Source of the DNA: Bacteroidales bacterium
Lineage (GTDB): Bacteria > Bacteroidota > Bacteroidia > Bacteroidales > PWNQ01
Assembly (NCBI GenBank): GCA_003557725.1
Contig: PWNQ01000041.1
Location: 8,481-72,480 of the forward strand
Direction: 5' to 3'
DNA length: 64,000 nt
Shown: in pieces, positions 10,222 to 36,449 of the stretch
Numbering within the stretch: the first letter of the stretch is position 1
Layout of the letters: every line of letters begins with the position of its first letter
Position numbers and translations under genes: made by a program
Notes under the pieces: model-generated
The model's database searches: none
Seen by the model: only the letters and a program-made list of their open reading frames with translations
Told to the model about the DNA's origin: nothing

Positions 10222-10242
10222 GTTCCCACTGGCATTAGAACC

Positions 10243-12774: not shown

Positions 12775-12854
12775 TGGGGTAAAAAAGGGTGTTTTTTATC
12801 CCGTTATCAAAAAATGTTGTATTTTTGGAGTTTGAAAAATCATGGGTAAATAAT

Positions 12855-13844: not shown

Positions 13845-13896
13845 TACTGATAATAATTATTTATAATCTGATTGAGAAACAATTAAAGCTTGAATT

Positions 13897-15753
13897 ATGA
13901 AATATATGGGATTTCTTAAAAGCTTCATGTTATTGACAACAGCAATCCTCATGGTGGCCTGCGGGTATGAGCGCTCACCCACAACCGGGTGGAACTACAA
14001 TGACCCTCAAAGCGGTGGCTTTGAAAAGCAGCCATTTATGGAACAAGTGACTGGCCCGGGGCTGGTGCTTATTGAGGGTGGACGCTTTACCATGGGACGA
14101 ACGGAGCAGGATGTAATGTTCGATTGGGATAATATCCCCAGAACAGTTACCGTGCCTTCCTTTTACATGGACCAGACCGAGGTGAGAAACTTTGACTATC
14201 TGGAATATCTTTACTGGTTAAAGAGAATCTTTGGCGATCGGTACCCCACCGTTTATGAAAGGGCACTGCCGGATACCAATATCTGGAGAGAAAAATTGGG
14301 CGAAAGAGAACAGTATGTGAGGTATTATCTGAGGCATCCTGCTTACAGGGACTATCCTGTGGTGGGGGTAAACTGGATACAGGCATCCAACTATGCGGCC
14401 TGGCGGACCGACCGGGTCAATGAAATGATCCTGGTGGAATTGGGCTTTATGGAGCGAATTCCCGATCAGGCCAATGAAGAACATTTTAATACGGAGGCCT
14501 ATCTGGCAGGACAGTATGACCTGGGGGTGATCCGGGAAAGCATGGTTAACCTTGACCCCAATGCTCCGGATGACCGGCTGGTGCGTATGGAGGACGGAAT
14601 ACTGCTCCCCGCATACCGCCTCCCAACAGAAGCCGAATGGGAGTTTGCTGCCCTGGGGCTTATTGGAAACACCATCTATGAAAGAGTGGTGGAAAGAAGA
14701 ATTTATCCCTGGAATGGGCATATCACCAGAACTAGTGCTAAAGAAAGCTATGGCGACTTCGTGGCCAACTTCCGCAGAGGAAGAGGAGATTATATGGGTA
14801 CTGCCGGATATCTTAATGATGCAGCCTCCATTACGGCTCCCGTTTATGCCTACTGGCCTAACGATTATGGCTTGTACAATATGGCAGGAAACGTGTCTGA
14901 ATGGGTACGCGATGTATACAGACCTCTCTCTCACGAAGACATGAGCGACTTCGCTCCTTTTAGGGGGAATGTGTATACGGTGCAGGCACGAAGCAGCTTT
15001 GGAGGATTGCAGCCCAAGCTGGGGTTTGTTATGTGGGACTATAGCGCTATTATTGACTACCTGAACGACTATCAGCAAATCTCCCGAGAACTTAACGATA
15101 TCAATGAGCATGAAGAAATGCTGATCACATATTTGAAGCAGTTTGCCATTGGTGCCGATAGCATGGCAGACATCAGCCGACATGAAGATGCGTCTATCCT
15201 TATGGAGGACGGATTGCTGGACTTTACCGGAAAAAGCCCCAGACCCAATACGGATGAAGCCAACGCTACAGAAGCAGAACTGGGGGTTAATATGGCCAAT
15301 GACTTTGATGAAATGCAGGTGAGGGATGAGAATATTATCACCATCCAGGCGGTTATAGCACAATATATCGAGGCTAGCCCCGGGGAAATTCAAACCAGAG
15401 CCGTTACGGTTCAGGAAAACCTTGACCGCCGAAACTATCGCAAAGCTGATAATATCAACTACAAAGATGGAACCTATACCACGGCTCCAGGCGCCACATG
15501 GGACCAGCGATCTGATGTGGCTGACCCCGACAGAAGCTACACCGACCAAATGTATGACTATCCTGAAGAAGAAAATATTGGAAGCTCCCTGATCAACGAC
15601 CGGGTGAGGGTTAGAAAAGGCGGATCATGGCGTGACGGAGCCTACTGGATGAGCCCGGGAACACGACGGTTCCTCCTGGAAACGCAACGAAGAGACGACC
15701 TGGGTTTCCGCTGCGCAATGGATCGCGTGGGAAGCCCCATCGGAACCTATTAA
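13897..15753 (+). CDS. gldJ: Gliding motility lipoprotein GldJ (FGE-sulfatase-like fold)
   Basis: Lipobox LMVACG. GldJ-like sequence (MVLIEGGRFTMGR, FYMDQTEVRNFDY, YPVVGVNWIQASNYAAWRTDRVNE, RKGGSWRDGAYW, FRCAM). It sits next to murF, an adjacency I recall from other Bacteroidota. Confidence 0.85.
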   Translation: MKYMGFLKSFMLLTTAILMVACGYERSPTTGWNYNDPQSGGFEKQPFMEQVTGPGLVLIEGGRFTMGRTEQDVMFDWDNIPRTVTVPSFYMDQTEVRNFDYLEYLYWLKRIFGDRYPTVYERALPDTNIWREKLGEREQYVRYYLRHPAYRDYPVVGVNWIQASNYAAWRTDRVNEMILVELGFMERIPDQANEEHFNTEAYLAGQYDLGVIRESMVNLDPNAPDDRLVRMEDGILLPAYRLPTEAEWEFAALGLIGNTIYERVVERRIYPWNGHITRTSAKESYGDFVANFRRGRGDYMGTAGYLNDAASITAPVYAYWPNDYGLYNMAGNVSEWVRDVYRPLSHEDMSDFAPFRGNVYTVQARSSFGGLQPKLGFVMWDYSAIIDYLNDYQQISRELNDINEHEEMLITYLKQFAIGADSMADISRHEDASILMEDGLLDFTGKSPRPNTDEANATEAELGVNMANDFDEMQVRDENIITIQAVIAQYIEASPGEIQTRAVTVQENLDRRNYRKADNINYKDGTYTTAPGATWDQRSDVADPDRSYTDQMYDYPEEENIGSSLINDRVRVRKGGSWRDGAYWMSPGTRRFLLETQRRDDLGFRCAMDRVGSPIGTY

Positions 15754-21699: not shown

Positions 21700-24600
21700 A
21701 TGAGCAGATTCCTGCTGCTTACGTTTTATTTGGTGTATGCTTTTACACCATGGCTTCATGCACAGGAGGGGCCGGTATACTCACAACACTACGCTACGGA
21801 AGTGGTTAAGAGTGAGCAAGGCCTTTCTCAAAACTCCGTGAGAAGCATTTTTCAGGATTCCAGAGGGCTTATGTGGTTTGGCACCTGGGACGGGCTGAAC
21901 CGGTTTAACGGACTTTCATTTCATATTATCCGTTCAGACTTCTGGGGAGAACCGGGACATTTATCCAATCATACTATTAATGTAATCTATGAAGATCACC
22001 ATAATTATTTGTGGATTGGAACGGATTATGGTCTGAATCGACTTGACCCAAAGACCATGGCGTTTAAGGCCTATTTTCATGAGCCAGGCAACCCTGAAAG
22101 CCTTCCCAGTGACACAATAAAAGCCATTGCCAGCGACCGGCAGGGTAATCTGTGGATTGGAACACAGCAGGGACTGGTTAAGCTTGTAGATGAGACGGGA
22201 AAATTCCTGCGGGTCGTTCCCGGTGAGGGAAATGATGCTCGCTCTGCCCAGGTGAGAACACTGTTCTCAGACTCCCGTGGCAGGCTATGGATAGGTACCG
22301 CTAAAGGACTGTTTTTGAAGGAAAAGAATAACCATGGCATTGGTCGTATTACAGACCCTCACAGCAATGAATGCCCTTTGATATCACCGGGAATTAACGT
22401 GGTGAGGCAAGTGGGAAGTCAGTTGATTATGGTGGGAACGGAAGAAGGTATATCCATTTTAGATTTTCAAGGGGCCTGCCAGGGGCATATTACTCCTCAA
22501 AACTCAAAAGGACAGCTTAAAGACCCATATATCATGGACCTTTGCCCCGACCAGAGTGGCAAGGTGTGGATTGCTACCTCCGGTGGAGGAATATCCTTTT
22601 ATTATCCCCAGACAGGTAAGGTGCGAAGCCTGGACCAGGTTCCCGGGTATGCCGCCGTTAATGAAGCTTTTGTCAATAGAATATATGAAGATGAGCAAGG
22701 GATTATTTGGATTGGATATGCCTGGAAAGGTCTGGCGAAAGTGGTACCCGCACGAAAGTTCTTTAATCGTTATTCTAAAGGCGAACTGCCGGGAGAAGGA
22801 CTGGTCGGAAGCTCCGTTTGGGCTGTAAATGAGGTGGCACCCAATACATTCTATGTGGCAACAGACAGAGGAATTAGTGTGCTGGAAAGCGGAAAAGGGA
22901 TAGTTAACAACCTTACTACATATGACGGTTTGAGCACTAATCATATACGAAGCTTATTGAAGTGCAGGAATGATGCAATATGGGTGGGAACCAATGACAG
23001 AGGACTGATCCGGATTAGCCGGGAAAAGGGAGATACTACACTGGAATTCTTTGGAAATAAAGCTAATGGAAGGTATAAAGAGTTGTATAATAACGTTATC
23101 ACCGGATTGCTTCAGGATGGACCTGGCTACATATGGGCTGCTACCAATTATGGTCTTTACCGATTTCATCCCGACAGTATGAGTGAATCGTTTACGGCTT
23201 TCCTGCATGAACCCAATAATACGGCTTCTATCAGCCATAATATGGTATATAGCGTTTTTGAAGATGACAGAAATACCATCTGGCTGGGAACCTATAACGG
23301 ACTCAATAAATACAATAGAGAAACGGGGGTGTTTACAGCCTATAAACATATTACCGGGGATCCTAATAGTATATCAACCAATAGGATATTTGGAATCAGC
23401 CAGGATGAAAGCGGCACCCTGTGGGTGGGAACCATGGGAGGAGGCCTTAATAAAATGGATCCCATAACAGAAAAATTCAGCCACTATGTGCATACCCACG
23501 GGCTTGCCAATAACGTGGTCTATAATATTATCCCCGATGAAATGGGGTACTTGTGGCTCAGTACCAACAGGGGACTTTCCAGATTCTCCCCGGGAAATGA
23601 GCAGTTTGTAAACTTCGATGTTAATGATGGCATCCAGGGATATGAGTTTAACCTGGGAGCAGCATTTAAAAGCAGCGATGAAAAGATCTTTTTCGGGGGA
23701 ATGAACGGACTGAACTCCTTTTATGCGCTGGAAGTAAAAAGAAACCAGTACATCCCCAAGCTGGTGATCACCAATGTAAGTGTTTATAATCAAAAACTCA
23801 ATAAAACGCTGGAGGATGGGGATACCATTATTTTGTCTCATAAAGATAATTTTATATCATTGGAATTTGCTGCTTTGGATTATACCAACCCGGTGAAAAA
23901 CCAGTATAAATACCGGTTAAAGAATGTTTCCCGTCAATGGATCCATGTCTCACCGCCAAAAAATACGGCAGAGTTTACCAAGTTGCCTCCCGGGGAATAT
24001 GAGTTTTTTTTAAAAGGCAGCAATAGTGACGGAATATGGAATGAACAGGGCATGCGGGTGTATATCATTATCGAGCCGGCCTGGCACCAGACCAGACTTT
24101 TTCGGTTTGGCAGTGCAACATTGATCCTATTGCTGGTGCTTTTTGCTGTTGCCTGGAGGATCGGACAAATCAGAAAAGAACAGCAAGCCGAAAGGCAAAT
24201 CTTTGAGCTGGAGAGAAAAGCGCTAAGGCTTCAAATGAACCCCCATTTTATTTTTAATACCCTGAACTCCATCCAAAGCTTTGTTTTGAAACGAGAAAAG
24301 AAAGCCGCCGTATCTTATCTGAATAAGTTTTCCAAAATGATACGGCAGGTATTATATAACTCTGATAAAAGCTTTGTGCTGTTATCCGACGAGATGGTAT
24401 TGCTGAAGAATTATATAGAGCTGGAGAGGCTACGCTTTGATTCAGGATTCGATTATGAATTTTATGTGGACCCCGGTGTGGATGATGACTTTATATCTAT
24501 TCCACCCATGCTTATTCAACCGCATGTGGAAAATGCCATCCTTCATGGGCTTATCCCCCTAAGGGACAAAGGTGGCGTGCTCACCGTTTCTTTTTTGCAA

Positions 24601-24849
24601 AATAGCCGGCAAACCATTAAATGCGTGGTGGATGACAATGGCATCGGAAGAGAAGCGGCAGGGAAAATAAAAAAACAATCCAAAAACAAATACCGGTCAA
24701 GGGGTATTAGTATCACCAGGGAACGCCTAAACAGAATTAATGAGATGTACAACCATGAGTTGTCGGTGGACATAGAGGATAAATACCATAGGGACGGCAC
24801 CCCGGCCGGCACAAAAGTGACGCTGATCATACCGGTGAAAAATGAATAA
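21700..24849 (+). CDS. Sensor histidine kinase with periplasmic two-component-regulator propeller/Y_Y_Y domain and a LytS-type His_kinase core
   Basis: Repeated beta-propeller motifs (LWIGT, GLNRF, GLSRF). TM helix ATLILLLVLFAVAW. NPHFIFNTLNSIQSF (LytS-type histidine kinase motif) and a C-terminal HATPase region (DDNGIG). Confidence 0.9.
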   Translation: MSRFLLLTFYLVYAFTPWLHAQEGPVYSQHYATEVVKSEQGLSQNSVRSIFQDSRGLMWFGTWDGLNRFNGLSFHIIRSDFWGEPGHLSNHTINVIYEDHHNYLWIGTDYGLNRLDPKTMAFKAYFHEPGNPESLPSDTIKAIASDRQGNLWIGTQQGLVKLVDETGKFLRVVPGEGNDARSAQVRTLFSDSRGRLWIGTAKGLFLKEKNNHGIGRITDPHSNECPLISPGINVVRQVGSQLIMVGTEEGISILDFQGACQGHITPQNSKGQLKDPYIMDLCPDQSGKVWIATSGGGISFYYPQTGKVRSLDQVPGYAAVNEAFVNRIYEDEQGIIWIGYAWKGLAKVVPARKFFNRYSKGELPGEGLVGSSVWAVNEVAPNTFYVATDRGISVLESGKGIVNNLTTYDGLSTNHIRSLLKCRNDAIWVGTNDRGLIRISREKGDTTLEFFGNKANGRYKELYNNVITGLLQDGPGYIWAATNYGLYRFHPDSMSESFTAFLHEPNNTASISHNMVYSVFEDDRNTIWLGTYNGLNKYNRETGVFTAYKHITGDPNSISTNRIFGISQDESGTLWVGTMGGGLNKMDPITEKFSHYVHTHGLANNVVYNIIPDEMGYLWLSTNRGLSRFSPGNEQFVNFDVNDGIQGYEFNLGAAFKSSDEKIFFGGMNGLNSFYALEVKRNQYIPKLVITNVSVYNQKLNKTLEDGDTIILSHKDNFISLEFAALDYTNPVKNQYKYRLKNVSRQWIHVSPPKNTAEFTKLPPGEYEFFLKGSNSDGIWNEQGMRVYIIIEPAWHQTRLFRFGSATLILLLVLFAVAWRIGQIRKEQQAERQIFELERKALRLQMNPHFIFNTLNSIQSFVLKREKKAAVSYLNKFSKMIRQVLYNSDKSFVLLSDEMVLLKNYIELERLRFDSGFDYEFYVDPGVDDDFISIPPMLIQPHVENAILHGLIPLRDKGGVLTVSFLQNSRQTIKCVVDDNGIGREAAGKIKKQSKNKYRSRGISITRERLNRINEMYNHELSVDIEDKYHRDGTPAGTKVTLIIPVKNE

Positions 24850-24868: not shown

Positions 24869-25618
24869 ATGATAATTAATGCTGTAATTATTGATGATGA
24901 AAAGCACTCCCGGGCCACTTTGCAAGACATGATCCAGGAGTATTGCCCTGAAGTTCACATCGCCGGAATGGCTGATGGTTGTGAATCAGGAGTAGAGATC
25001 ATTGAAAAATGTAAACCCGGACTGGTGTTTCTGGATATCCAGATGCCTGATGGAAGCGGTTTTCGTGTGCTGGAGCAAACCAAAGAGAGAAACTTTGAGG
25101 TGATCTTTACCACTGCATACGACTCCTTTGCCATTAAAGCATTTAAATATAGTGCGCTGGATTACTTGCTAAAGCCAATTGACGGAATAGAACTGCAGAA
25201 TGCCGTGGAAAAAGCCGTGCAAAGAAAAACCAACTCCTCAGGAGCCGCCGTGGAAATGCTACTGGAAAACCTCAAACGGAAAGAAAAACCCGGAAAGATC
25301 GTGCTGTCCACCTTTAAAGGCCTGCACGTAGTGGAAATCAGTCAGATTGTCCGGTGTAAAAGTGAAGATTATTATACCCGGTTCTTCTTTAAAGATAAAA
25401 CAGAACTGCTTGTATCCAAAACACTTAAAGAGTACGAAAGCATCCTGGAAGATCATCAATTTATCAGACCACATAAATCACACCTTATTAATATAGAGTT
25501 TGTAAAAAACTATATGAAATCTGACGGAGGGTATATCCTGCTTGCCGATGGTTCCAGAATACCTGTGGCCCGTAGAAAAAAGGACGGGATAGTTAAGTTG
25601 CTTAAAGAGCTTGAGTAA
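24869..25618 (+). CDS. LytTR-family response regulator
   Basis: Receiver domain (IIDDE, LVFLDIQMPDGSG, DYLLKP) with a C-terminal LytTR DNA-binding domain (FIRPHKSHLINIEFV, RIPVARRKK). Starts 20 nt after the kinase gene. Confidence 0.9.
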   Translation: MIINAVIIDDEKHSRATLQDMIQEYCPEVHIAGMADGCESGVEIIEKCKPGLVFLDIQMPDGSGFRVLEQTKERNFEVIFTTAYDSFAIKAFKYSALDYLLKPIDGIELQNAVEKAVQRKTNSSGAAVEMLLENLKRKEKPGKIVLSTFKGLHVVEISQIVRCKSEDYYTRFFFKDKTELLVSKTLKEYESILEDHQFIRPHKSHLINIEFVKNYMKSDGGYILLADGSRIPVARRKKDGIVKLLKELE

Positions 25619-25783: not shown

Positions 25784-25848
25784 CCCGGGGTGTTTTTTCT
25801 CAAATACTCTGGATAGATTTATATCTTTGCCGGGTGTTTTTTCAAATA
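25784..25848 (+). repeat. About 20-bp direct repeat CCGGG(G)TGTTTTTT(C)TCAAATA, two copies
   Basis: cccggggtgttttttctcaaata (25784-25806) and ccgggtgttttttcaaata (25830-25848). The copies flank the TATCTTTG box at 25822-25829. Confidence 0.4.
25822..25829 (+). promoter_or_regulatory. -7 box TATCTTTG between the LytTR gene and the acidic-protein gene
   Basis: Exact TAnnTTTG match. A weaker TATTTTTA at 25913-25920 lies closer to ATG 25952. Confidence 0.35.
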
Positions 25849-25849
25849 G

Positions 25850-25902
25850 ACCGTTAACTGATTGAAAAGGCCCGTTAACTGGATTTAATACCATTTAACG
25901 GG
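25850..25902 (+). promoter_or_regulatory. LytTR-type operator candidate: two direct CCGTTAACTG repeats plus one inverted copy
   Basis: The 9-mers ACCGTTAAC (25850-25858) and CCCGTTAAC (25871-25879) are separated by a 12-bp spacer. The 10-mer CCGTTAACTG is identical in both copies. An inverted near-copy, CCATTTAACGGG (25891-25902), is the reverse complement of CCCGTTAAaTGG. Located 230 nt after the LytTR regulator gene and 50-100 nt before ATG 25952. Confidence 0.45.
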
Positions 25903-25951
25903 AAGTTCGTTGTATTTTTACACCAAAATTCAGGCGTTGTTATGCGCCATC

Positions 25952-26437
25952 ATGCTTATGGAAGATCTGCTACTGTTACTTTTGGGGTTAGTCTGGCTGG
26001 GAGCGAGTTACTACCAGTCGCAAAGGAAAAAGAAGGCCGAAGAAGAGCGCCGGAGCGCCGCTGTGACCAAATCCGGTGATCATAATGAAATGGATGATGA
26101 GGAGCCTTCAGGAAAAGAGTCTTTTCTGGATAAAATGATGGAAACCATTGATCAGGAAGGGTCAGGACTGCTTCAGGACCTGGAAAAGCAGGCAAGTAAC
26201 CAGTTCTCCAGCGGGGAAATAGATGACAAGAATGGGGAGATAGCAGAGAATGAAGAGGTGGGAAGTAATAGCCAGGCAGAAGAGAGCGAAGAATCATTAA
26301 CGGCTTCGGCAGGGTTAACCAATTTATCCCGGAGGAAAAAACAAGTCAAAAATCAACAATGGGCAAGAAATCTGGTGCGGGATTTTGACGGTAAAAAGGC
26401 CGTTATTTATTCTGAGATCCTCAACAGGCCTTACTAA
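25952..26437 (+). CDS. Small acidic membrane-anchored protein (hypothetical)
   Basis: ATG at 25952 or 25958 gives an N-terminal TM helix (LLLLLLGLVWLGASYY). This is followed by an E/D/S-rich low-complexity region and a C-terminal motif KAVIYSEILNRPY. The TTG start at 25910 lies in promoter-like sequence. Confidence 0.5.
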   Translation: MLMEDLLLLLLGLVWLGASYYQSQRKKKAEEERRSAAVTKSGDHNEMDDEEPSGKESFLDKMMETIDQEGSGLLQDLEKQASNQFSSGEIDDKNGEIAENEEVGSNSQAEESEESLTASAGLTNLSRRKKQVKNQQWARNLVRDFDGKKAVIYSEILNRPY

Positions 26438-26533: not shown

Positions 26534-29500
26534 ATGTTTCGAAAGTTAATGACAGTAGTTGTCCTGTTATTCGCCACATTTTATTGGGCGTATGGACAAT
26601 CAGGAGCCTTAAGAGGTAAAGTAATCGATGCCGAAACAGGAGAACCGGTACCTTTTGCCAACGTAGTAGTTGAGGCAGGAGGAAGTCAGGCCGGTGGAGC
26701 CACTTCAGACTATGATGGGAACTATACCATCAGGCCCCTTTCTCCGGGAAGGTACGATGTGAAAGCGTCTTACGTAGGATATAAGCCGTTGATGATACGT
26801 GGTGTGATCATTAATGCCGACCAGGTGCGCTTTATGGATATAGAAATGGAGCCCACCGCGGAAACCCTGGAAACCTTTGAAGTGAGGGACTACAGGGTGC
26901 CCCTTATTGATAAAGACCAGACTACCACCGGAGAAACCGTAACACGGGAAGACATTGCCAAGCTGCCCGGACGGTCTGCCACTGCTGTGGCCGCTACTGT
27001 GGGGGGTGTGTTCTCACAGGATGGAGAAATGGGAAGCATCCGGGGAGCACGGTCTGAAGGAACGGTAATGTATATCGATGGAGTAAGGGTTAGAGGAACT
27101 TCATCCGTACCACAGTCGGCCCTGGAGCAAGTCTCTGTTATTACCGGAGGAACCCCGGCACAATACGGCGATGCAACCGGGGGGATCGTTAACATTACCA
27201 CCAGAGGCCCTTCCCGGCAATTCGGAGGTGGAGGAGAACTGATTACCTCTCAATTCCTGGATAACTGGGGCTATAATATGCTCGGATTTAATGTCCAGGG
27301 CCCGATCCTCAGAGATAAAGAAACCGAAAGATCATTGCTGGGCTTTATGCTTACCGGTGAGGTGAGCTACCAGGAAGACCCCAGACCGTTTGCCGTACCT
27401 TACCACCAGGCCACGGATGAAAGAATTGAGTACCTGGAAAACAACCCCTTCCGGCCTACGGGCACAGGGTTTGGCGCTTTTTACAATGCCACTTATACCC
27501 GTATGGAAGACCTGGAAGCCACCAGAACAAAACAATATGCTGAAAATTACTCCATCAACCTCAACGCCAAAGTTGACGTGGGACTGGATTTAAACACCAA
27601 CCTTACATTTGGCGGGTCTATGCACCACCGGGGCGGATATAACTGGAGTATGGCCAATGCCATGTTCAACGCCGGAAATAACGGAGTGTATGAAGATAAT
27701 ACCTACAGATTCTATGGCCGCTTTACCCAAAGATTCCCCACCGACCGCGACAGCCCTTCGCTGATACGCGATGTGAACTATACCATTCAGGCCGACTTCT
27801 CCCATTATGACCGCGTATTACAGGACCGTGACCACCAGGATAACTTGTTCAACTACGGATATATTGGAGATTATAAAACCTATAAAGTGAATTCCTTCGA
27901 GCGGGGCGATGACACTATCCTGGGATTCTCCGACGTATGGATACATAATGGATTTAGAGATACCCTGGTAACTTTTACCCCCGGAGATGTTAATGAGCAA
28001 ATAGCTGCTTATACATCTGATTATTACAACCTCTACGACCTGCACTCCGGAATGTACTCCAATAAAGTGCTGATCCAGCAGGGACAAGGCCTCCTTAACG
28101 GAATGAACCCCCAGTCGGTGTATGGGCTCTATACCAATGTGGGATCCCCATACGGGTCTTATCAGAAAATCCAAAACCAGCAATACAGTATTAATGCCAG
28201 TGGCTCGGCAGGCATCGGGAACCATGAGATTCGTTTTGGCCTTTTGTACGAGCAGCGCATTGACCGGGCCATTACTTATAACGCAACCGGCTTGTGGAGG
28301 TTGATGCAGCAGGTGACCAACCGGCATATCGAACAGTTGGACCTGAATAACCCCATCGCTGTGTATGACGCCTATGGCGTTTTCCAGGATACGGTAATGT
28401 ACAACCGCTTGTATGATGAGGGATTCCAGACGGCTTTTGATGCTGCAGTTAGAGAAAAACTGGGACTGCCGGTGGACGGACTGGACTGGATTGACGTGGA
28501 CAACCTGGACCCCTCATTCTACTCCATAGATATGTTCAGCGCCGATGAGTTGCTGAATGCCGGAGACCAGTACGTAAACTACTATGGGTACGACCACACC
28601 GGAGAGACCTATGGAACCCGACCCAGCTTTGAAGAGTTTTTTACAGCCACTGATGAGAACGGAAACTTTACCAGACCCATCGCCCCTTTTGAACCCATTT
28701 ATATGGCCGGATATATCCAGGATCGCTTTACTTTTGATGACCTGGTATTTAATATAGGAATAAGGGTGGACCGCTATGACGCCAACCAGAAAGTGCTCAA
28801 AGACCCATTCCTCCTGTATGAAGCAAGAACCGTTGGCGAAGTGGATGACCTGGGACCACACCCGGGGAACATGGGCGATGATTATGTGGTGTATGTGGAT
28901 GACTACAACAACCCTAACGCTATTCTGGGATATCGTAGCGGAATGGAATGGTTTGATGCACAGGGCACTTCAGTGCAGAACCCTTCTTCTATTGAAGCCG
29001 GAACAGGAATTAACCCCTATCTGGTTAACCCCGATCAAACCGCAATCAATGCCAGTGCATTCGAAGATTATGATCCTCAGGTAACGGTAATGCCCAGAAT
29101 CTCATTTTCTTTCCCAATATCCAGAGAGGCTCTGTTCTTTGCTCATTATGATGTACTTACCAAGCGACCCACCTCAGGGGCACGACTGGATATCCTGGAC
29201 TACTACTTTATTGAAAGCCGGGGGCAAAGCACCCTTAACAACCCTAACCTGAAGCCGGAAAGAACCACCGATTACGAGGTAGGATTCCAGCAAGTTCTGG
29301 GGCCCACTTCTTCTCTTAAGCTTTCTGCCTATTACCGGGAGATGAGAGATATGGTTCAGGCCTTCCCATTTACCGGAGCTTATCCTGTTCCTTATATTTC
29401 TTACAGCAACATGGACTTTGGTACCGTTAAAGGACTAACGGTTGCTTATGACCTGCGAAGAACGCGCAACATGCGCCTGAGAGCAAACTATACACTGCAG

Positions 29501-30163
29501 TTTGCTGATGGAACCGGCTCTTCTGCCACCACTTCCCTCTCACTGATTCGCGCGGGACAGCCCAACCTTAGAACCACCAACCCGCTGAGTTTTGACCGTC
29601 GTCATGCCGTCAACGTGGTGGCCGATTATCGATTCAGAGGAGGAACCGATTATGACGGTCCATCCATTAGCAGAACCGTTGTGGATGACGATGGAGAACG
29701 CAGAGTAAGAACATACCGAATCCTGGAAAATACGGGAATAAACCTCACCATGAGAGGCGGGTCAGGAACACCTTATACAGCCCACTCTCAAATTTATTCT
29801 GCCGTACTGGGTGGCGGAGCTCAATTGATCGATGGATCTATAGGCGGTTCCAGACTCCCGTGGTCATTCTCTATGGATGCACGCATTGACAGGGATATCC
29901 AACTGGGCGAAGAGGGAAGAACCCACCTGAATATCTACCTTACTGTTCTTAATGTGCTGGACAATAAAAATGTACTCAACGTATACAGCGCTACCGGAAG
30001 CCCCGATGATGATGGATTCCTTGCAGCTCCTGAATTTCAGCAACAAATTGCATCTCAAAACGACCCACAGGCCTTTTATGACCTGTACACAACGCGCATT
30101 CAAAGCCCGTATAACTACAGCCTGCCCAGAAGGATCAGACTGGGTGTAGCGTTCAATTTTTAA
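26534..30163 (+). CDS. TonB-dependent-receptor-like outer-membrane barrel with an N-terminal carboxypeptidase-regulatory-like domain (1209 aa)
   Basis: Signal peptide. CarboxypepD_reg-like region (GKVIDAETGEPVPFANVVV...DGNYTI). Plug region (TVTREDIAKLPGRSATAVAATVGGV, IRGARSEGTVMYIDGVRV, AQYGDATGGIVNITTRGP). Long barrel ending in RLGVAFNF with a terminal Phe. Confidence 0.85.
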   Translation: MFRKLMTVVVLLFATFYWAYGQSGALRGKVIDAETGEPVPFANVVVEAGGSQAGGATSDYDGNYTIRPLSPGRYDVKASYVGYKPLMIRGVIINADQVRFMDIEMEPTAETLETFEVRDYRVPLIDKDQTTTGETVTREDIAKLPGRSATAVAATVGGVFSQDGEMGSIRGARSEGTVMYIDGVRVRGTSSVPQSALEQVSVITGGTPAQYGDATGGIVNITTRGPSRQFGGGGELITSQFLDNWGYNMLGFNVQGPILRDKETERSLLGFMLTGEVSYQEDPRPFAVPYHQATDERIEYLENNPFRPTGTGFGAFYNATYTRMEDLEATRTKQYAENYSINLNAKVDVGLDLNTNLTFGGSMHHRGGYNWSMANAMFNAGNNGVYEDNTYRFYGRFTQRFPTDRDSPSLIRDVNYTIQADFSHYDRVLQDRDHQDNLFNYGYIGDYKTYKVNSFERGDDTILGFSDVWIHNGFRDTLVTFTPGDVNEQIAAYTSDYYNLYDLHSGMYSNKVLIQQGQGLLNGMNPQSVYGLYTNVGSPYGSYQKIQNQQYSINASGSAGIGNHEIRFGLLYEQRIDRAITYNATGLWRLMQQVTNRHIEQLDLNNPIAVYDAYGVFQDTVMYNRLYDEGFQTAFDAAVREKLGLPVDGLDWIDVDNLDPSFYSIDMFSADELLNAGDQYVNYYGYDHTGETYGTRPSFEEFFTATDENGNFTRPIAPFEPIYMAGYIQDRFTFDDLVFNIGIRVDRYDANQKVLKDPFLLYEARTVGEVDDLGPHPGNMGDDYVVYVDDYNNPNAILGYRSGMEWFDAQGTSVQNPSSIEAGTGINPYLVNPDQTAINASAFEDYDPQVTVMPRISFSFPISREALFFAHYDVLTKRPTSGARLDILDYYFIESRGQSTLNNPNLKPERTTDYEVGFQQVLGPTSSLKLSAYYREMRDMVQAFPFTGAYPVPYISYSNMDFGTVKGLTVAYDLRRTRNMRLRANYTLQFADGTGSSATTSLSLIRAGQPNLRTTNPLSFDRRHAVNVVADYRFRGGTDYDGPSISRTVVDDDGERRVRTYRILENTGINLTMRGGSGTPYTAHSQIYSAVLGGGAQLIDGSIGGSRLPWSFSMDARIDRDIQLGEEGRTHLNIYLTVLNVLDNKNVLNVYSATGSPDDDGFLAAPEFQQQIASQNDPQAFYDLYTTRIQSPYNYSLPRRIRLGVAFNF

Positions 30164-30195: not shown

Positions 30196-33100
30196 ATGAG
30201 TTACTTATTAAGAATTTCAGTATTGGCCATTATTGCCGTGCTGATGCTTCCCCAAGACGGACTGGCATACAAAGTCCCGCGTGATAAGGAGAGGACGCCC
30301 AATAAACAACAAAAAAGCGTTGCCTCCGCCGGATGCCTTCCCGGGACTGCACATATAGACTTGGACATTAACAACGTTCGTGCAAGGATTAACCAAAGTG
30401 GAGATATGTGGTGGGACCTGCAGGGTAACCCACGATATGAGGTGCCCAAAGGTTCAGGAAAACACTCCATGTTCTCCGCCGCCCTTTGGATGGCCGGAGT
30501 GGATGTAAATGGGCAATTGAAAGCCGCCGCACAGAGATACCGGGGGTCGGGAGTGGACTTCTGGCCGGGACCCCTATCTACGGATGGGAAGGCCACGGTG
30601 GACGCTGAAACATGTAAAGCCTACGACCGCCACTGGGTTATGACAAGAGCCATGGTGGAAGAGTTCCTGGCCTGGAGAGATGACCCGGACGAATTCCCGG
30701 AATATGTTATCCCACAGGAAATATTGAACTACCCGGCTCACGGTGACGTGTCAAAAAATCAAGCCTATTATCTGGCTCCTTTTTATGATTATACCGGTGA
30801 CGGAACTTATGACCCTACATCCGGAGACTATCCATACTATGACTTCGATAACGAACTGTGTAAAAACTATGTCCCTACCATGGAAGGAAATGGTATCCTG
30901 GAAGACCAGGTGCTTAAAGGGGACCAGACCATCTGGTGGGTGTTTAACGACAGAGGAAACGTACATGCTGAAACAGAAGCTGCACCTATAGGTGTGGAAA
31001 TCCGGGCTCAGGCGTTTGCTTTTCTTACCAACGATGAGATCAACAACTCTACATTTTATTCTTACGAGATCATTAACCGCTCTACCCATCGGCTCACCAA
31101 TACCTATTTTAGCCAGTGGGTGGATATGGATATTGGAGACCCTTATGACGACTATGTGGGCTGTGATGTGGGCCGTGGACTGGGGTATGCCTATAACGGG
31201 GAAGCTGTTGATGGTAGTGGCGGACCTAATCACTATGGAGCACAGCCACCGGCTATTGGGGTAGACTTTTTTCAGGGACCATATATAGACCCTGACGGAC
31301 TGGATAACCCAAGATTTCAGAGAGTTATTTCCTATGATATAGATACTGTCATTGTGGGAGTGGACACCATTCTGGATACATTAAGCATTGATACTGTTTC
31401 CAGGCAAATTGTTGACGCCAGCATCAATGGCGTGAACTTCGCCGATGGTATTGTGGACAATGAGCGATTTGGAATGCGCAGGTTCGTTTACCATAACAAT
31501 GTTGGTGGAGGTACCAACCCAGCTATGACTGACCCCCAGACCGGCAGTGAATACTATCAATTGCTCCGGGGAATCTGGAAAGATGGTACCCGAATGCTTT
31601 ATGGTGGTAATGCCCACCAGAACTCAGGTGCCTATGGCCCTGAGTGTGACTTTATGTTTCCCGGAGATACCGATCCGTGGAACTGGGGTACCGGAGGACA
31701 ACCACCTAATGGACCAACCTACTGGACCGAAGAGACAGCAGGGAATGTTCCTTACGACCGCCGGTTTATGCAATCTGCCGGACCATTTACCCTGGAAGCC
31801 GGTGCAGTGAATTACATCACTGTGGGTATTCCATGGGCAAGAGCTTCTTCCGGAGGCCCATTCGCCTCTGTGGAACTGCTCAGGGAAATTGATGATAAAC
31901 TCCAACGATTGTTTGATAACTGCTTCCAGGTAATGGATGGCCCGGATGCACCGGACCTGACCATTAGAGAAATGGACAGAAAACTGATCCTGTATCTTTC
32001 CAACAGGCCCACTTCAAATAACTACAAAGAGCAGTACGAAGAGTGGGATCCCACCATTATTACTCCGGACAGCATTACCGATGATTCTCTCAGGTATGAC
32101 TCCATGTATCGCTTTGAGGGATATCAGATTTTCCAGCTAAGAGATGCCTCAGTGTCTGTCACCGACATCCGTGACCCCGACCTGGCCCGGGAAGTGGCAC
32201 AAGTGGATATTAAAAACGGAGTGGGACAACTGGTTAATTTTGAGAGAAGCCAACGTCTGGATGCCAATGTGCCTATGGAAATGGTGATGGGCGGCGATGA
32301 AGGCATCAAGCACTCGTTTGTTATTACGGAAGACGCTTTTGCTTCCGGGGACAGAAGACTGGTTAACCACAAAAAATATTATTTCGTAGCTATTGCCTAT
32401 GCATATAACGAATATATGCCGTATTCACAGGAGCCCGGGGTTGTTAATGGTCTCTATGGCCAGCAGCAACCATACCTGGCAGGGCGAAAGGGTGCTACAG
32501 GAGCCATTACCCCGGTTACTGCGATCCCCCATCTCGTCCAACCTGAAAGAGGCGGAACGGAAGTGCGCTCTGAGTACGGAGACGGGCCTATGATTACCAG
32601 AATAGAAGGACAAGGTAACGGAGGGTTGAACCTTCAGCTTACCGAGGAAAGTATCCAGGAGATACTGAACTCTCCACAACACAGGACTAAGCATCCAGTG
32701 TATGAACATGGAAAGGGACCCATTGATGTGAAAGTAGTTGACCCCGTTCGAGTAAAACCGGGCAATTATACCCTGATGCTCACAGTGAGTAACGACAGCA
32801 TTGACTACGCCGGATGGGTGCTGCTCAACACCAATGACCTTACAGATACCATCGCAGTTAGTCAGCATACCATTGATATTAATAATGAACAGCTATTGCT
32901 GGACTTAGGTCTGTCCATTACCATTAACCAGGTAGGGAAACCAGGCGATGCTAACCTGCAGAACAGCGGCGTAATCACCTCTTCCATCAGCTTTGCTGAC
33001 AGCTCTAAGCGCTGGCTCTCCGGCGTACCCAATAACGATGCCTCCATAGCCCTTAACTGGATCCGGTCAGGTACCATGGACGACCCCGCAAATCAGGATA

Positions 33101-34263
33101 ATAACGATTATTCTACAGGGCCGTCACACAGCAGAATTTTCCTGGATCCCAATGAGAATTTTGAGAAGATCATTGGAGGAACCTGGACGGCCTACCGAAT
33201 GGCTGCACATACCAACTTGCTGGATCACGGGCCTGCCTTGGGAGGAGCTTTTCATCAGCAAAATGATATGGGTAAGTTGTCCAGTGTGGACATCGTGTTT
33301 ACCGATGATAAGAGCAAATGGACCCGTTGCCCTGTAATTGAAATGGGTGATGATCAGGCTCTTACCGAAGGGAACGCACAGCAATGGAGACTGCGCGAAG
33401 CGGCTTCGGTGGATAAAAATGGAAACCCCGACAACAGCGGAACAACCGGCATGGGCTGGTTCCCCGGATATGCCATCAATGTGGAAACCGGAGAAAGACT
33501 GAACATGATCTTTTCTGAAGATTCCTGGCTCGTTGGTGAAAATGGCAGAGACATGAAGTGGAACCCAACAGGAAGATACTTTACCGACCTGGGAGTGCCT
33601 CTTCTTGGCGGAAAACACTATGTATATGTGCTTGATCATGATAATCAAAGCCCTGCATATGATGAGGGAAAATGGGCTTACGATCAGCTCCGGACTGAAA
33701 GCCCTGCGCTTATCGGCCTTATGACCCGTAGCATAATGTGGGTGGGCATGCCCATGCTTAATCCACAATTTGAACTGCTGGAGACGGAAGCCACCATCAG
33801 CATACGCGTTCAGCGACCTTATGAACGGTATTACTCCACTCCTGACTTCCAGGAAAACAACCCCATTAATGACAATTATCCGGTTTATCAATTCTCTACC
33901 GATGATATTTCTGCTCGCAGAGGGGTGACATCTATTGCTAAAACCATGTTGGACACCATCCGGGTGGTTCCCAACCCCTATTATGGTTACTCCCAGTATG
34001 AAACCAGCCAGCTGGATAACCGGGTAAGGATCACTAACCTGCCTGAAGTCTGTACTATCACCATTTACAGCCTGGATGGCACATTGGTGAGAAGGTTTAC
34101 CAAAGACTCCTATCTTACCAGCATTGACTGGGACCTGAAGAACCATGTGGGCATCCCCATATCCAGCGGTATGTACCTGGTTCATGTTAATGCACCGGGA
34201 ATAGGCGAAACGGTAATTAAATGGTTTGGCTCTATGCGCCCCGCTGACCTGGAGGCATTCTAA
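30196..34263 (+). CDS. 1355-aa secreted protein of unrecognised family with a T9SS C-terminal sorting domain
   Basis: Signal peptide MSYLLRISVLAIIAVLMLPQDGLA. The last ~100 aa (nt 33958-34260) look like a T9SS CTD (VVPNPYYG, ITIYSLDGTLVRRF, SSGMYLVHV). I recognise no catalytic motif. It starts 33 nt after the receptor-like gene. Confidence 0.8.
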   Translation: MSYLLRISVLAIIAVLMLPQDGLAYKVPRDKERTPNKQQKSVASAGCLPGTAHIDLDINNVRARINQSGDMWWDLQGNPRYEVPKGSGKHSMFSAALWMAGVDVNGQLKAAAQRYRGSGVDFWPGPLSTDGKATVDAETCKAYDRHWVMTRAMVEEFLAWRDDPDEFPEYVIPQEILNYPAHGDVSKNQAYYLAPFYDYTGDGTYDPTSGDYPYYDFDNELCKNYVPTMEGNGILEDQVLKGDQTIWWVFNDRGNVHAETEAAPIGVEIRAQAFAFLTNDEINNSTFYSYEIINRSTHRLTNTYFSQWVDMDIGDPYDDYVGCDVGRGLGYAYNGEAVDGSGGPNHYGAQPPAIGVDFFQGPYIDPDGLDNPRFQRVISYDIDTVIVGVDTILDTLSIDTVSRQIVDASINGVNFADGIVDNERFGMRRFVYHNNVGGGTNPAMTDPQTGSEYYQLLRGIWKDGTRMLYGGNAHQNSGAYGPECDFMFPGDTDPWNWGTGGQPPNGPTYWTEETAGNVPYDRRFMQSAGPFTLEAGAVNYITVGIPWARASSGGPFASVELLREIDDKLQRLFDNCFQVMDGPDAPDLTIREMDRKLILYLSNRPTSNNYKEQYEEWDPTIITPDSITDDSLRYDSMYRFEGYQIFQLRDASVSVTDIRDPDLAREVAQVDIKNGVGQLVNFERSQRLDANVPMEMVMGGDEGIKHSFVITEDAFASGDRRLVNHKKYYFVAIAYAYNEYMPYSQEPGVVNGLYGQQQPYLAGRKGATGAITPVTAIPHLVQPERGGTEVRSEYGDGPMITRIEGQGNGGLNLQLTEESIQEILNSPQHRTKHPVYEHGKGPIDVKVVDPVRVKPGNYTLMLTVSNDSIDYAGWVLLNTNDLTDTIAVSQHTIDINNEQLLLDLGLSITINQVGKPGDANLQNSGVITSSISFADSSKRWLSGVPNNDASIALNWIRSGTMDDPANQDNNDYSTGPSHSRIFLDPNENFEKIIGGTWTAYRMAAHTNLLDHGPALGGAFHQQNDMGKLSSVDIVFTDDKSKWTRCPVIEMGDDQALTEGNAQQWRLREAASVDKNGNPDNSGTTGMGWFPGYAINVETGERLNMIFSEDSWLVGENGRDMKWNPTGRYFTDLGVPLLGGKHYVYVLDHDNQSPAYDEGKWAYDQLRTESPALIGLMTRSIMWVGMPMLNPQFELLETEATISIRVQRPYERYYSTPDFQENNPINDNYPVYQFSTDDISARRGVTSIAKTMLDTIRVVPNPYYGYSQYETSQLDNRVRITNLPEVCTITIYSLDGTLVRRFTKDSYLTSIDWDLKNHVGIPISSGMYLVHVNAPGIGETVIKWFGSMRPADLEAF

Positions 34264-34374
34264 GGATATATGGCACGTGAGCCCGGAAGGGTGCTAACAC
34301 CATTTTGGCTACAGCACTTTTCCGGGTTCATAAAACCAACAACTAATTATGAATACCAGACAAAATTCAGAACA

Positions 34375-35436
34375 ATGAGACATAAAGTAAAGAGTTTGAT
34401 TTCAATGGCCTTGGGAGGAATAATCCTTTTTTCCGTCCTTAATGCCAGTGCCGGTAACAAAGACCGGGCCGGACAAGCGGGAGCTGATGAGTTATTGATT
34501 AACCCATGGGCTAAATCATCAGGATGGGCCTGCGCCAATACCGGAGGGGTCAGAGGAATGGAAGCCCAATACATCAATGTTGCCGGACTGGCTTTTACAG
34601 AAACCACCCAAATCGGGTATACACACACCAACTATCTGGCTGGGACAGGAATTAGTATTAATACGCTGGGACTGGCACAAAGGGTGTCGGAAACAGGAGG
34701 GGTCCTGGGCCTGGGAATTATGTCTATGTCCCTGGGCGATATTGACCGCACCGAAGTAGATATGCCCGAAGGAGGTATTGGAACTTTTGCCCCAAGCTTC
34801 CTGAATGTTAACCTCTCTTATGCCAGAGCCTTTTCCAATAGCATCTTTGGTGGCGTTAATGTTAAAATTATCTCCCATCAAATTGCGGATATCAGCGCCA
34901 GTGGTATGGCTATCGATGTTGGGGTGCAATATGTCACCGGACGTACCGATAATATTAAGTTTGGAGTTGCCCTGAAAAATGTGGGAGCACCTATGAAGTT
35001 TACAGGCGATGGAATGTCGCTGAGGACGATAATCACTGAAACAAGGCACACCATGACTGTGGAACAGCGCTCTGATGCATACGAATTGCCCGCATTGCTC
35101 AGAATTGGAATCACCTATGATATCGATCTGGCTGATAACCACATCCTTTCTCTGGCCGGAAACTTCCAGTCCAACTCTTTCAGGAAAGATATATTCTCCC
35201 TGGGAGCACAATACCAGTTTAGTGACTACCTTGAAATCAGAGGTGGATACAACTACGAGGAGGGACTGCTTAATGAGGGAGACCGTACCACCGTATTCAC
35301 CGGTCCTACTGCCTGCCTTTCTCTGAAAGTGCCCATTGACCGCGAAGAAAATAGCTTTTTTACCATAGATTATTCATACAGGGCTACGCATCCGTTTGAT
35401 GGGGTTCATGCTTTTGGAACTTCCATCGCACTGTAA
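34375..35436 (+). CDS. PorV/PorQ-like outer-membrane beta-barrel (second PorV-like gene in the window)
   Basis: From ATG 34375: signal peptide MRHKVKSLISMALGGIILFSVLNASA. Then AGQAGADELLINPWAKSSGWACANTGGVRGMEAQYINVAGLAF, which has the same pattern as the PorV N-terminal motif at 7001-8197. About 350-aa barrel ending in an aromatic-rich strand. Confidence 0.6.
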   Translation: MRHKVKSLISMALGGIILFSVLNASAGNKDRAGQAGADELLINPWAKSSGWACANTGGVRGMEAQYINVAGLAFTETTQIGYTHTNYLAGTGISINTLGLAQRVSETGGVLGLGIMSMSLGDIDRTEVDMPEGGIGTFAPSFLNVNLSYARAFSNSIFGGVNVKIISHQIADISASGMAIDVGVQYVTGRTDNIKFGVALKNVGAPMKFTGDGMSLRTIITETRHTMTVEQRSDAYELPALLRIGITYDIDLADNHILSLAGNFQSNSFRKDIFSLGAQYQFSDYLEIRGGYNYEEGLLNEGDRTTVFTGPTACLSLKVPIDREENSFFTIDYSYRATHPFDGVHAFGTSIAL

Positions 35437-35493
35437 TTAATAATTGTTGCGCCTGTATAATTAATGTAGTATCTTTATGCACGATTACAAGGG

Positions 35494-35527
35494 GACCCTT
35501 TCCCAAAGGGTCTTCTTGTATTTTGTT
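35494..35527 (+). terminator. Hairpin with T-rich tail after the PorV-like gene
   Basis: GACCCTTT ccc AAAGGGTC followed by ttcttgtattttgtt. It lies 58 nt after the stop at 35436. It could instead belong to the greA leader. Confidence 0.4.
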
Positions 35528-35540: not shown

Positions 35541-36032
35541 ATGAAAATTATAGACATGGCTAATGTAAAATACTATAACAAGGAGGGGTTGGAGAAGCTA
35601 AAAAATGAGCTGAACCAACTGGAAAAGGTGGAAAGACCCAAAATATCACAGCAAATTTCGGAGGCCCGAGATAAGGGGGACTTATCTGAAAATGCAGAAT
35701 ATGACGCCGCAAAGGAAGCTCAGGGATTACTGGAAGCTAAAATCTCAAAACTGAAGGAGATTATCAATAACGCCAGAATAATTGATGAGTCCAAACTGGA
35801 TGATAGCAAGGTGTTATTGTTTTCCACCGTGGTGATCAAAAATATGAAAAACAACCAAAAAATGACCTATACCCTCGTCCCCGAAAAGGAGGCCAACCTT
35901 AAGGAGGGAAAAATCTCAGTGGATTCGCCCATCGCAAAGGGACTGCTGGGCAAAGAAGTGAATGAAAAGGCCGATATACAGGTTCCTGCCGGAAAGTTCA
36001 CCTTTCAAATAATGGATATTACCAGAAAATAG
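35541..36032 (+). CDS. greA: Transcription elongation factor GreA
   Basis: GreA coiled-coil (AREKGDLSENAEYDAAKEAQ-like: ARDKGDLSENAEYDAAKEAQ) and C-terminal domain (ISVDSPIAKGLLGK). Alternative start at ATG 35556. Confidence 0.9.
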   Translation: MKIIDMANVKYYNKEGLEKLKNELNQLEKVERPKISQQISEARDKGDLSENAEYDAAKEAQGLLEAKISKLKEIINNARIIDESKLDDSKVLLFSTVVIKNMKNNQKMTYTLVPEKEANLKEGKISVDSPIAKGLLGKEVNEKADIQVPAGKFTFQIMDITRK

Positions 36033-36056
36033 ATAAACTTTTACCCTTTTCCTGCC

Positions 36057-36449
36057 ATGAGTAGCATTTTTACCAAAATCGTTAATAAGGAAATCCCTTG
36101 TTATAAGATTGCCGAAGACGATTCCTTTTTGGCTTTTCTGGATATTAACCCGCTGGCTAAAGGCCATACGCTGGTTATACCCAAAAAGGAGGTGGATTAT
36201 ATCTTCCATTTGGATGATACATTGTATAAGGAGCTATTTGCTTTTGCCAAAAAAGTGGCACCAGCCATTGAAAAGACCATTAAATGTGAGCGTATTGGCA
36301 TTACAGTGATTGGCCTGGAGGTGCCTCATGCCCACATCCATCTTATTCCAATTAACTCTTTGTATGATATGGACTTTAAGCAGCCAAAGCTGAAGCTGAC
36401 CCAGGAGGAGTTTGCTGCCATGGCTGAGAAGATCCGGGGCAACCTCTAA
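36057..36449 (+). CDS. HIT-family (histidine triad) hydrolase
   Basis: IFTKIVNKEIPCYKIAEDD, NPLAKGHTLVIPK, and the HAHIHLIP histidine triad. Confidence 0.9.
   Translation: MSSIFTKIVNKEIPCYKIAEDDSFLAFLDINPLAKGHTLVIPKKEVDYIFHLDDTLYKELFAFAKKVAPAIEKTIKCERIGITVIGLEVPHAHIHLIPINSLYDMDFKQPKLKLTQEEFAAMAEKIRGNL

Follow-up and report, generated by a model that had tools for sequence, protein, structure and literature searches.

Two type IX secretion system (T9SS) proteins keep their C-terminal domains (CTDs) on an outer-membrane barrel: PorU retains its CTD on PorV and PorZ retains its CTD on PorQ, and it was suggested that cognate PorV-like barrels shield CTDs from cleavage (PMC10202324). In translocon structures, type-A CTDs contact PorV through one conserved lysine (PMC10994853). 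Type-B CTD proteins use PorP-like partner barrels (PMC9143113). In the alginate polysaccharide utilization locus (PUL) of Rhodothermus marinus, genes annotated as those of a TonB-dependent receptor (TBDR), a protein with a T9SS type A sorting domain (hypA) and a PorV/PorQ family protein (hypB) lie next to alginate lyases (PMC9530828). Here we describe a TBDR-CTD protein-barrel cassette in a stretch of 64,000 nucleotides from a Bacteroidales bacterium (assembly GCA_003557725.1, contig PWNQ01000041.1, positions 8,481 to 72,480 of the forward strand), referred to in its full length as the window. The central gene of the cassette (30196-34263, + strand) encodes a protein of 1355 aa, designated X.

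X is a large protein of unassigned fold, framed by a signal peptide and a type-A-like CTD and followed by a conserved C-terminal peptide, and its gene is almost invariably flanked by those of a TBDR and a dedicated PorV/PorQ-family barrel. The reading that we favour, with a likelihood that falls a little short of even, is that X, the TBDR and the barrel make up a conserved three-protein outer-membrane module in which X is exposed at the surface, in a SusD-free form of substrate capture and uptake.

The X gene and its family

X is encoded by a single uninterrupted open reading frame (ORF) that runs from ATG to stop over exactly 30196..34263. Its N-terminus, MSYLLRISVLAIIAVLMLPQDGLA followed by YK, has the n-h-c layout of a Sec signal peptide, as judged from the sequence and not from a predictor, and is followed by a variable linker (residues 25-44). 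Searches recovered at least 6810 full-length homologues, typically of ∼1340-1400 aa and with 53-92% identity to X, and longer proteins of ∼1650 aa in a rumen clade. The N-terminal 541 residues alone matched 6963 representative clusters (at 50% identity), with 2179 of them at E ≤ 1e-30. These numbers establish the gene as real and beyond chance.

The conserved-looking blocks pointed out in the preliminary description of this DNA were all found, and fall on invariant or near-invariant columns of the family alignments. They comprise DINNVRARINQSGDMWWD (residues 57-74), YEVPKGSGKHSMFSAALWMAG (81-101), WWVFNDRGNVHAETE (247-261), FYSYEIINRS (287-296) and QWVDMDIGDPYDDYVGCD (307-324), together with the Asp/Tyr-rich stretch DYTGDGTYDPTSGDYPYYDFDN (198-219).

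At locus L085 (9001-13215), on a long-read, pilon-polished contig, a member of the family appears to be split into ORFs of 649 and 625 aa, probably through a frameshift artefact, and some of the shorter proteins counted as family members are accordingly fragments. A long member (P0379) contains a BNR/Sortilin-like insertion within its C-terminal body.

The cassette and its conservation

Gene order was compared over 81 loci, namely that of the window and 80 in genomes of GTDB species, considering neighbours within ±8 kb. A TBDR gene lies directly 5' of X in 79 of the loci, and a PorV/PorQ-family barrel gene directly 3' in 77; the few cases in which one is missing are explained by truncated contigs. 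The cassette is encoded on one strand with tiny gaps, in the order TBDR, X, PorV/PorQ-family barrel, terminator. The gap between the TBDR and X genes is 32 nt in the window, and the two genes abut in a Flavobacteriales contig of 3.48 Mb (L081), which keeps the order TBDR-X-barrel-GreA-HIT with ∼43% identity.

Genes for GreA and a HIT-family protein follow the cassette (35541-36449 in the window) in 74/81 and 69/81 loci, respectively, including the Flavobacteriales genome. Such deep synteny of an outer-membrane cassette with housekeeping genes is unusual. The cassette was seen across Bacteroidales and Flavobacteriales, and this synteny across orders indicates that it is ancient, vertically inherited and essentially single-copy. 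A mobile island or a PUL-like hypervariable locus was considered and rejected on account of this synteny with the two housekeeping genes, which holds at those loci and across orders.

The TBDR of the cassette has an Oar-type and not a SusC-type architecture, and is matched by generic TonB models only, with no match to the SusC and RagA models. Since the TBDR has no SusC signature and the cassette contains no SusD-like gene, assignment to a SusCD-type PUL was rejected.

The barrel is a PorV/PorQ-family protein (NF033709, 139.9 bits, cut-off 90) that falls far below the equivalog cut-offs of both PorV (55 against 250 bits) and PorQ (66.5 against 220 bits). Canonical PorV and PorU are encoded separately in the window, 20 kb upstream, and PorV shares only 24% identity with the cassette barrel, which is therefore an additional paralogue. 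The true start of the barrel is probably Met36 at position 34375, after which comes a signal peptide.

The CTD and the C-terminal tail

On X itself the curated CTD thresholds are narrowly missed (TIGR04183, 20.1 bits against 23; Por_Secre_tail, PF18962, 13.4 bits against 27). The presence of a type-A CTD is nevertheless confirmed by its fold and by its relatives. The domain is modelled as a seven-strand β-sandwich, with strands between residues 1256 and 1345, and its Foldseek matches are PorZ (5m11, over 151 columns), the translocon-bound CTD of NucA (8glk_D; TM-score normalised to the target, TMt, 0.68) and PorU (6za2_B). BLASTP aligns it with the CTD of PorU from the same genome at 26% identity over 90 aa, and PF18962 is clearly matched by 10 of 34 diverse family members (best E 2e-12). 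K1342 is invariant and is the lysine typical of type-A CTDs; by analogy with the translocon structures, it fits the conserved lysine that contacts PorV.

The CTD of X does not strictly form the extreme C-terminus. The ∼10-aa extension that had been noted beyond the usual end of a CTD is real, with TIGR04183 ending near residue 1345 and a conserved 10-aa tail coming after it. X runs 13 residues past ...VIKW, while PorU of its own genome stops 2 residues past the equivalent ...VIYK. In an alignment of 85 representative sequences, the motif [FY]G-x-[ML]-R-P-x-D-L-x-x-[FY]-COOH ends nearly every member.

In the same alignment the mean conservation is highest in the CTD (0.64), followed by the N-terminal module (N-module, 0.58), the extension (0.57) and the C-terminal body (0.42-0.47). 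Over a set of 64 loci the distance of the CTD (0.54) lies near that of the N-module (0.45) and is half that of the C-terminal body (1.03). The CTD contains an enlarged conserved β1-β2 loop with invariant Y1268 and E1269. In the structure model, no low-confidence linker precedes the CTD: the preceding blocks have predicted local distance difference test scores (pLDDT) of 93 or above, and the CTD is rigidly joined to the body. The β1-β2 loop and the terminal peptide, the two features that set this CTD apart from ordinary ones, are conserved yet modelled with low confidence, as is usual for elements that bind a partner. The low pLDDT of the tail would fit a peptide that becomes ordered only once bound, and we propose that it is a putative docking peptide.

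Taken together, the top conservation of the CTD, a tail conserved to its last residue, the lack of a linker and the conserved low-confidence additions suggest that the CTD of X is a functional domain and not a disposable tag. The preliminary description had called X a T9SS cargo. X does carry a type-A-like CTD, but cargo in the ordinary sense, a passenger that loses its CTD by cleavage, is probably the wrong picture for X in view of the conservation of CTD and tail, the missing linker and the TBDR and barrel neighbours.

The body of X

The ∼1230 residues between signal peptide and CTD had been described as lacking any assignable family, and searches of Pfam, NCBIfam and the PDB (by sequence, profile and Foldseek) agree. 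Pfam matched X only at Por_Secre_tail, and NCBIfam only through TIGR04183 and the PorZ model (its final 80 positions), with the scores given above and below. Across 34 diverse family members, the CTD was the only shared Pfam match at E ≤ 0.5. The single X sequence had no match among PDB sequences, and a profile of 53 family sequences gave only noise at E 0.2-0.5 and the PorZ CTD (E 0.48); the C-type lectin matches of the profile, at E ∼0.2, were judged to belong to the noise.

The structure of X was predicted with AlphaFold as two overlapping halves, from 90-sequence alignments covering both clades. Residues 26-800 were modelled with a pLDDT of 81.8 and a predicted template modelling score (pTM) of 0.79, and residues 575-1355 with a pLDDT of 90.5 and a pTM of 0.86. 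Both halves are mostly β-structure, with too few helices for an (α/α)6 or an α/β catalytic fold. With Foldseek against the PDB, the N-terminal half found only matches of E ∼1e-4, with TM-scores normalised to the query (TMq) of at most 0.24 and a root-mean-square deviation (rmsd) of ∼10 Å. These are enzymes that share a non-catalytic N-terminal β-supersandwich: a dextran dextrinase like those of glycoside hydrolase family 15 (GH15), and members of GH94, GH116 and GH149. The top match, 9ju0 (E 7.5e-5, TMq 0.24, rmsd 9.9 Å), likewise lies over the non-catalytic supersandwich. The C-terminal half was matched solely through its last 90-150 residues, i.e. the CTD, besides generic sandwich arrays, and a search of BFVD added nothing.

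Thus the search for remote homologues, by profile and by Foldseek, gave no clear match to a glycoside hydrolase, a protease or an adhesin, and known glycoside hydrolase, polysaccharide lyase, peptidase and adhesin families showed no significant match in sequence or fold. The N- and C-terminal bodies, compared by hhalign, gave no sign of an internal duplication. Among the invariant residues, no Ser-His-Asp or carboxylate-pair catalytic signature could be supported without the model coordinates.

Three regions can be distinguished. The N-module contains invariant Asp, Asn and Glu residues in acidic DxDxG-type loops, holds all five motif blocks and the Asp/Tyr-rich stretch, and is interrupted by a variable hairpin insert (residues 373-408). 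That the Asp/Tyr-rich stretch could be a metal-binding loop, as supposed in the preliminary description, is plausible in view of the invariant acidic loops. The middle region begins at a conserved GPDAPxL. The C-terminal body carries the invariant block GMGWFPGYAINxETGERLN (residues 1085-1103), and has no structural relative in the PDB or BFVD outside the CTD. The N-module is autonomous, as it also occurs in a protein of 946 aa (P0384) with LRR and PKD domains and a canonical CTD (E 7e-10). The gene of this protein adjoins that of a 3692-aa PKD/FG-GAP CTD protein (locus L083, 127-10967 for the two together).

Coupled evolution of the three proteins

Pairwise distances were compared over 64 loci, and partial correlations were calculated given GreA and HIT. 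The distances of X correlate with those of the TBDR (r 0.94, partial 0.82) and of the barrel (r 0.95, partial 0.81), although the partial values are inflated by the use of GreA and HIT (together ∼290 aa), a noisy proxy of species divergence. The CTD alone gives r 0.92 (partial 0.76) with the barrel and r 0.89 (partial 0.67) with the TBDR, and the N-module r 0.94 (partial 0.81) with the TBDR and r 0.95 (partial 0.77) with the barrel. By partial correlation, the CTD therefore tracks the barrel over the TBDR, and the N-module tracks the TBDR slightly over the barrel. With so short and noisy a housekeeping proxy, these correlations are supportive only. The CTD-barrel correlation, the conservation of CTD and tail, and the absence of a linker together argue indirectly for a CTD that is retained on the barrel.

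Proposed function and alternatives

In the proposed mechanism, Sec would take X through the inner membrane, and the T9SS, by recognising the type-A-like CTD, would take it through the outer membrane, with the dedicated barrel probably serving as its carrier. The CTD would not be removed; instead, the CTD, its β1-β2 loop and the RPxDLxx[FY] peptide would stay on the cognate barrel, anchoring X at the surface in the same way as PorU on PorV and PorZ on PorQ. The body, rich in putative Ca-binding loops, would capture and possibly process an extracellular substrate and hand it to the TBDR for import. Where present, the Reg_prop/Y_Y_Y kinase and the LytTR regulator would control expression of the cassette. 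A host T9SS is present, with PorV, PorU, PorP/SprF and GldJ all encoded within the window.

The steps of this mechanism are not equally secure. T9SS-dependent export of X is very likely, and its association with the cognate barrel is likely. Its coupling to the transporter stands at an even balance. The substrate is weakly favoured to be a glycan or other polymer; a glycan in particular is doubtful. Counted for the mechanism as a whole are the synteny of the three genes, the extra barrel paralogue, the features of the CTD and its closest matches, the coupled evolution, the R. marinus triad, the glycan-sensing type of the kinase sensor and, as a weak hint, the slight likeness of the N-module to the β-supersandwich of carbohydrate-active enzymes.

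A simpler account is that X is an ordinary T9SS cargo, namely a secreted enzyme or adhesin of an unnamed family, or one anchored on anionic lipopolysaccharide (A-LPS), with its CTD cut by PorU and its neighbours only loosely related. It would agree with the signal peptide and type-A-like CTD, with the canonical PorU and PorV of the genome, with the N-module of the plainly cargo-like LRR, PKD and canonical-CTD protein, and with X paralogues that lack a barrel of their own. It is nonetheless unlikely, in that the CTD and the 10-aa motif after it are conserved like the best part of the body, the model joins body and CTD with no flexible linker, a dedicated PorV/PorQ paralogue and a TBDR accompany X almost without exception across orders, and the three proteins have coupled evolutionary rates. 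Another explanation is that of T9SS or envelope machinery, in which X and the barrel form a third attachment-type pair besides PorU-PorV and PorZ-PorQ (e.g. an alternative processing, glycolipid-delivery or surface-assembly factor) with the TBDR-like barrel as a structural partner, a role proposed for PG0534 in P. gingivalis. The gene pair mirrors porU-porV, the gene of a large CTD protein standing before that of a ∼350-aa barrel; conservation is very high, with single-copy, vertical inheritance beside greA and HIT; the CTD of X is closest to those of PorZ and PorU; and the TBDR-like PG0534 is needed for T9SS function in P. gingivalis (PMC5445135). The best CTD matches are also counted for the anchored X that we favour, since PorZ and PorU both retain their CTDs. 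The window adds that its T9SS/gliding cluster (7001-15753, with porV, porU, porP and gldJ) lies ∼12-23 kb upstream of the cassette. In the 80 loci outside the window, however, no T9SS gene is a conserved neighbour within ±8 kb, so that the proximity seen here is probably incidental. X also has neither a PorU sortase domain nor a PorZ equivalog match outside the CTD, and the ligand-sensing propeller of the two-component system points to use on induction and not to constitutive machinery. The family was found in the named orders, with model T9SS organisms absent among the matches seen, which were not checked systematically. A role in machinery is thus decidedly unlikely.

Surface-layer (S-layer) proteins of T. 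forsythia are T9SS CTD proteins of similar size, which raises the question of whether X is a surface layer, adhesin or protective coat, i.e. a structural array tethered by the barrel with no role in transport. X is large, β-rich and multi-domain, with loops of putative Ca-binding type, and Foldseek matched it at low probability with an S-layer protein and with multi-sandwich proteins. Yet coats and adhesins usually evolve fast, and X has more than 300 invariant columns, no internal repeats and a tight coupling to the TBDR, which makes such a structural role very unlikely.

The favoured reading, a surface-exposed X that is docked on its barrel and serves the TBDR, has several points weighing against it. 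X shows ∼55% identity across families, has those >300 invariant columns and is essentially single-copy; together with the greA/HIT synteny, such high conservation suits a core envelope or machinery role over fast-evolving nutrient capture. It is for this conserved, core-genome character that the envelope-machinery and cleaved-cargo explanations retain the modest likelihoods just given. No catalytic or binding site was identified in X, and the likeness of its N-terminal half to the supersandwiches of GH15, GH94 and GH116 enzymes was not taken as family membership at the low TMq and large rmsd reported above. The regulators occur in only about half of the loci, and the partial correlations are inflated, as stated above. 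In addition, two X paralogues are orphans without a receptor or barrel of their own (L003, 14109-18080; L084, 9001-13110). These lie a few genes 3' of a canonical cassette, and might share a single barrel with it. Finally, hypA of R. marinus has ∼727 aa against 1355 aa for X, and the two are likened by annotation and gene order alone.

A more far-reaching proposal, which we advance tentatively, is that the cassette represents an unrecognised phylum-wide outer-membrane uptake machine, in which a permanently docked X of novel fold has a SusD-like role and of which the R. marinus triad is another instance. In the literature on TBDR/CTD/PorV-like systems, we found no characterisation of the X family or of the cassette beyond the R. 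marinus annotation. If the model of an anchored X is correct, the T9SS would not only secrete enzymes and adhesins but also assemble permanent partners of TBDRs, and the 'extra' PorV/PorQ paralogues would gain a job as cargo-specific anchors. Bacteroidota would then have a third route for building transporter complexes that are exposed at the surface, besides lipoprotein export (SusD, BtuG) and the dome of the β-barrel assembly machinery (BAM). The family comprises ∼7000 clusters at 50% identity, conserved and confidently modelled with no solved or annotated relative, so that one structure or one knockout would serve to annotate thousands of proteins from metagenomes of gut, rumen, digester and marine origin. 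The RPxDLxx[FY]-COOH tail offers a simple experimental handle.

Regulatory genes and other features of the window

The coordinates of the cassette, of the regions of X and of related genes are collected in Table 1.

Table 1. Coordinates in the window of the regions of X, the cassette, its putative regulators and the T9SS genes
Feature	Position	Strand	Basis or remark
X, whole ORF including stop codon	30196..34263	+	ORF and homologue searches
Sec signal peptide, residues 1-24	30196..30267	+	Read from sequence; poorly conserved, as usual for signal peptides
N-module, residues 45-578	30328..31929	+	Model m318eae46805d, pLDDT 81.8; mostly β
Middle β-sandwich, residues 579-790	31930..32565	+	Secondary structure in both models; Fn3-like Foldseek matches
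C-terminal body, residues 791-1250	32566..33945	+	Model m399a70eb44f3, pLDDT mostly >90
T9SS type-A-like CTD, residues 1251-1345	33946..34230	+	NCBIfam, model, Foldseek, BLASTP
C-terminal extension SMRPADLEAF, residues 1346-1355	34231..34260	+	Conserved to last residue; pLDDT 33-49
TBDR, 1209 aa (N-terminal CarboxypepD_reg, plug and barrel)	26534..30163	+	Pfam, NCBIfam
PorV/PorQ-family outer-membrane barrel	34270..35436	+	NF033709
Intrinsic-terminator-like hairpin, 16-bp stem and T run	35486..35520	+	After barrel gene; closes transcription unit
Sensor histidine kinase (Reg_prop β-propeller, Y_Y_Y, LytS-type His_kinase)	21700..24849	+	Pfam
Response regulator (receiver, LytTR DNA-binding domain)	24869..25618	+	Pfam
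TamL	2709-5075		
Canonical PorV	7001-8197	-	512 bits
Canonical PorU, two ORFs	8356-12249	-	NF033707, 745 and 504 bits
PorP/SprF	12789-13844	+	T9SS/gliding cluster of the window
GldJ	13897-15753	+	T9SS/gliding cluster of the window

Reg_prop/Y_Y_Y periplasmic sensors are used by the hybrid two-component glycan sensors and PUL systems of Bacteroides. A kinase of this type is encoded upstream of the cassette on the same strand in 43/81 loci, and also in locus L082, and the LytTR regulator in 42/81; the kinase is likely the regulator of the cassette. L082 (GCA_042576465.1, labelled candidate division KSB1) has the gene order of the window from the kinase gene to a GT2 gene, with an X that is 57% identical, and an error in binning or taxonomy may lie behind its KSB1 label.

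Between the regulator and TBDR genes lies a small ORF (25910-26437, + strand) for a protein of ∼150-175 aa with an N-terminal hydrophobic segment, a very acidic body and no family match; a counterpart is present in the same place in 22 loci and in L082. The same interval contains a 20-nt direct repeat in 21-bp register (25841-25902; TTCAAATAGACCGTTAACTG and TTGAAAAGGCCCGTTAACTG) with an inverted arm (CCATTTAACGGG), just 3' of a -7 box of Bacteroidota type (TATCTTTG, 25822-25829). The repeat was considered as a conserved LytTR site. Its geometry fits, yet its sequence is found only in the window and in locus L016, and the assignment is not established. An Rfam scan of the window found no RNA family.

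The two ORFs of canonical PorU are separated by an in-frame TAG (10243-10245; ...FFGLYAPG, stop, GSNASGNVDIGVGRIP...) and match positions 1-482 and 494-1094 of the PorU model. The TAG may stem from a sequencing error or a nonsense mutation, or may be read through; if the stop is real, the sortase of this strain would be broken. Further downstream, a gene unrelated to X (52413-58535, + strand) encodes a bacterial α-2-macroglobulin of 2040 aa with MG2, A2M and bMG10 domains.

Comparison with known systems

X resembles the PorU-PorV and PorZ-PorQ pairs in that a large protein, exported (in X, as predicted) through Sec and the T9SS and bearing a type-A CTD, is paired with a 14-strand barrel of the PorV/PorQ family, and porU and porV are likewise adjacent genes. 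It differs in that neither the sortase of PorU nor the propellers of PorZ have a detectable counterpart in its body, by sequence or by fold, in that the cassette barrel falls short of both equivalog thresholds (PorV and PorQ), and in having a post-CTD tail, a TBDR and a two-component system. Identification of X as PorU was rejected, with no match to NF033707 and a Foldseek match to PorU over the CTD only, as was its identification as PorZ (NF052228, cut-off 260), which it matches with 23.9 bits over model positions 664-742, corresponding to the CTD only.

Type-B CTD/PorP-SprF systems share the principle of a carrier and anchor barrel that is specific to one cargo and is encoded next to it (PMC9143113; PMC10994853). 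In contrast, the CTD of X is type-A-like and its barrel is of the PorV/PorQ family and not of PorP/SprF, for which the window has a separate gene. In the BamG-BamH pair, a FadL/PorV-like 14-strand barrel docks a surface protein via its extracellular loops, and a conserved terminal extension threads the barrel wall (PMC12578637). BamH, however, is a lipoprotein, it is the barrel and not its partner that bears the extension, and the X cassette has no link to BamA.

The resemblance to SusC/SusD, as well as to RagAB and BtuB-BtuG, lies in a CarboxypepD_reg TBDR encoded beside a predicted surface partner, and in the Reg_prop/Y_Y_Y sensor. Unlike those partners, X is a putative T9SS substrate of 150 kDa with its own barrel and not a lipoprotein, and the cassette is single-copy and highly conserved instead of multiplied and divergent. 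The R. marinus triad has the identical three-gene order and the same annotation classes within an experimentally supported PUL, and by analogy supports a role of the cassette in nutrient uptake. Overall, X comes closest to PorU/PorV and PorZ/PorQ in its proposed anchoring and to SusC/SusD in the pairing of a transporter with a surface partner, and is a member of neither.

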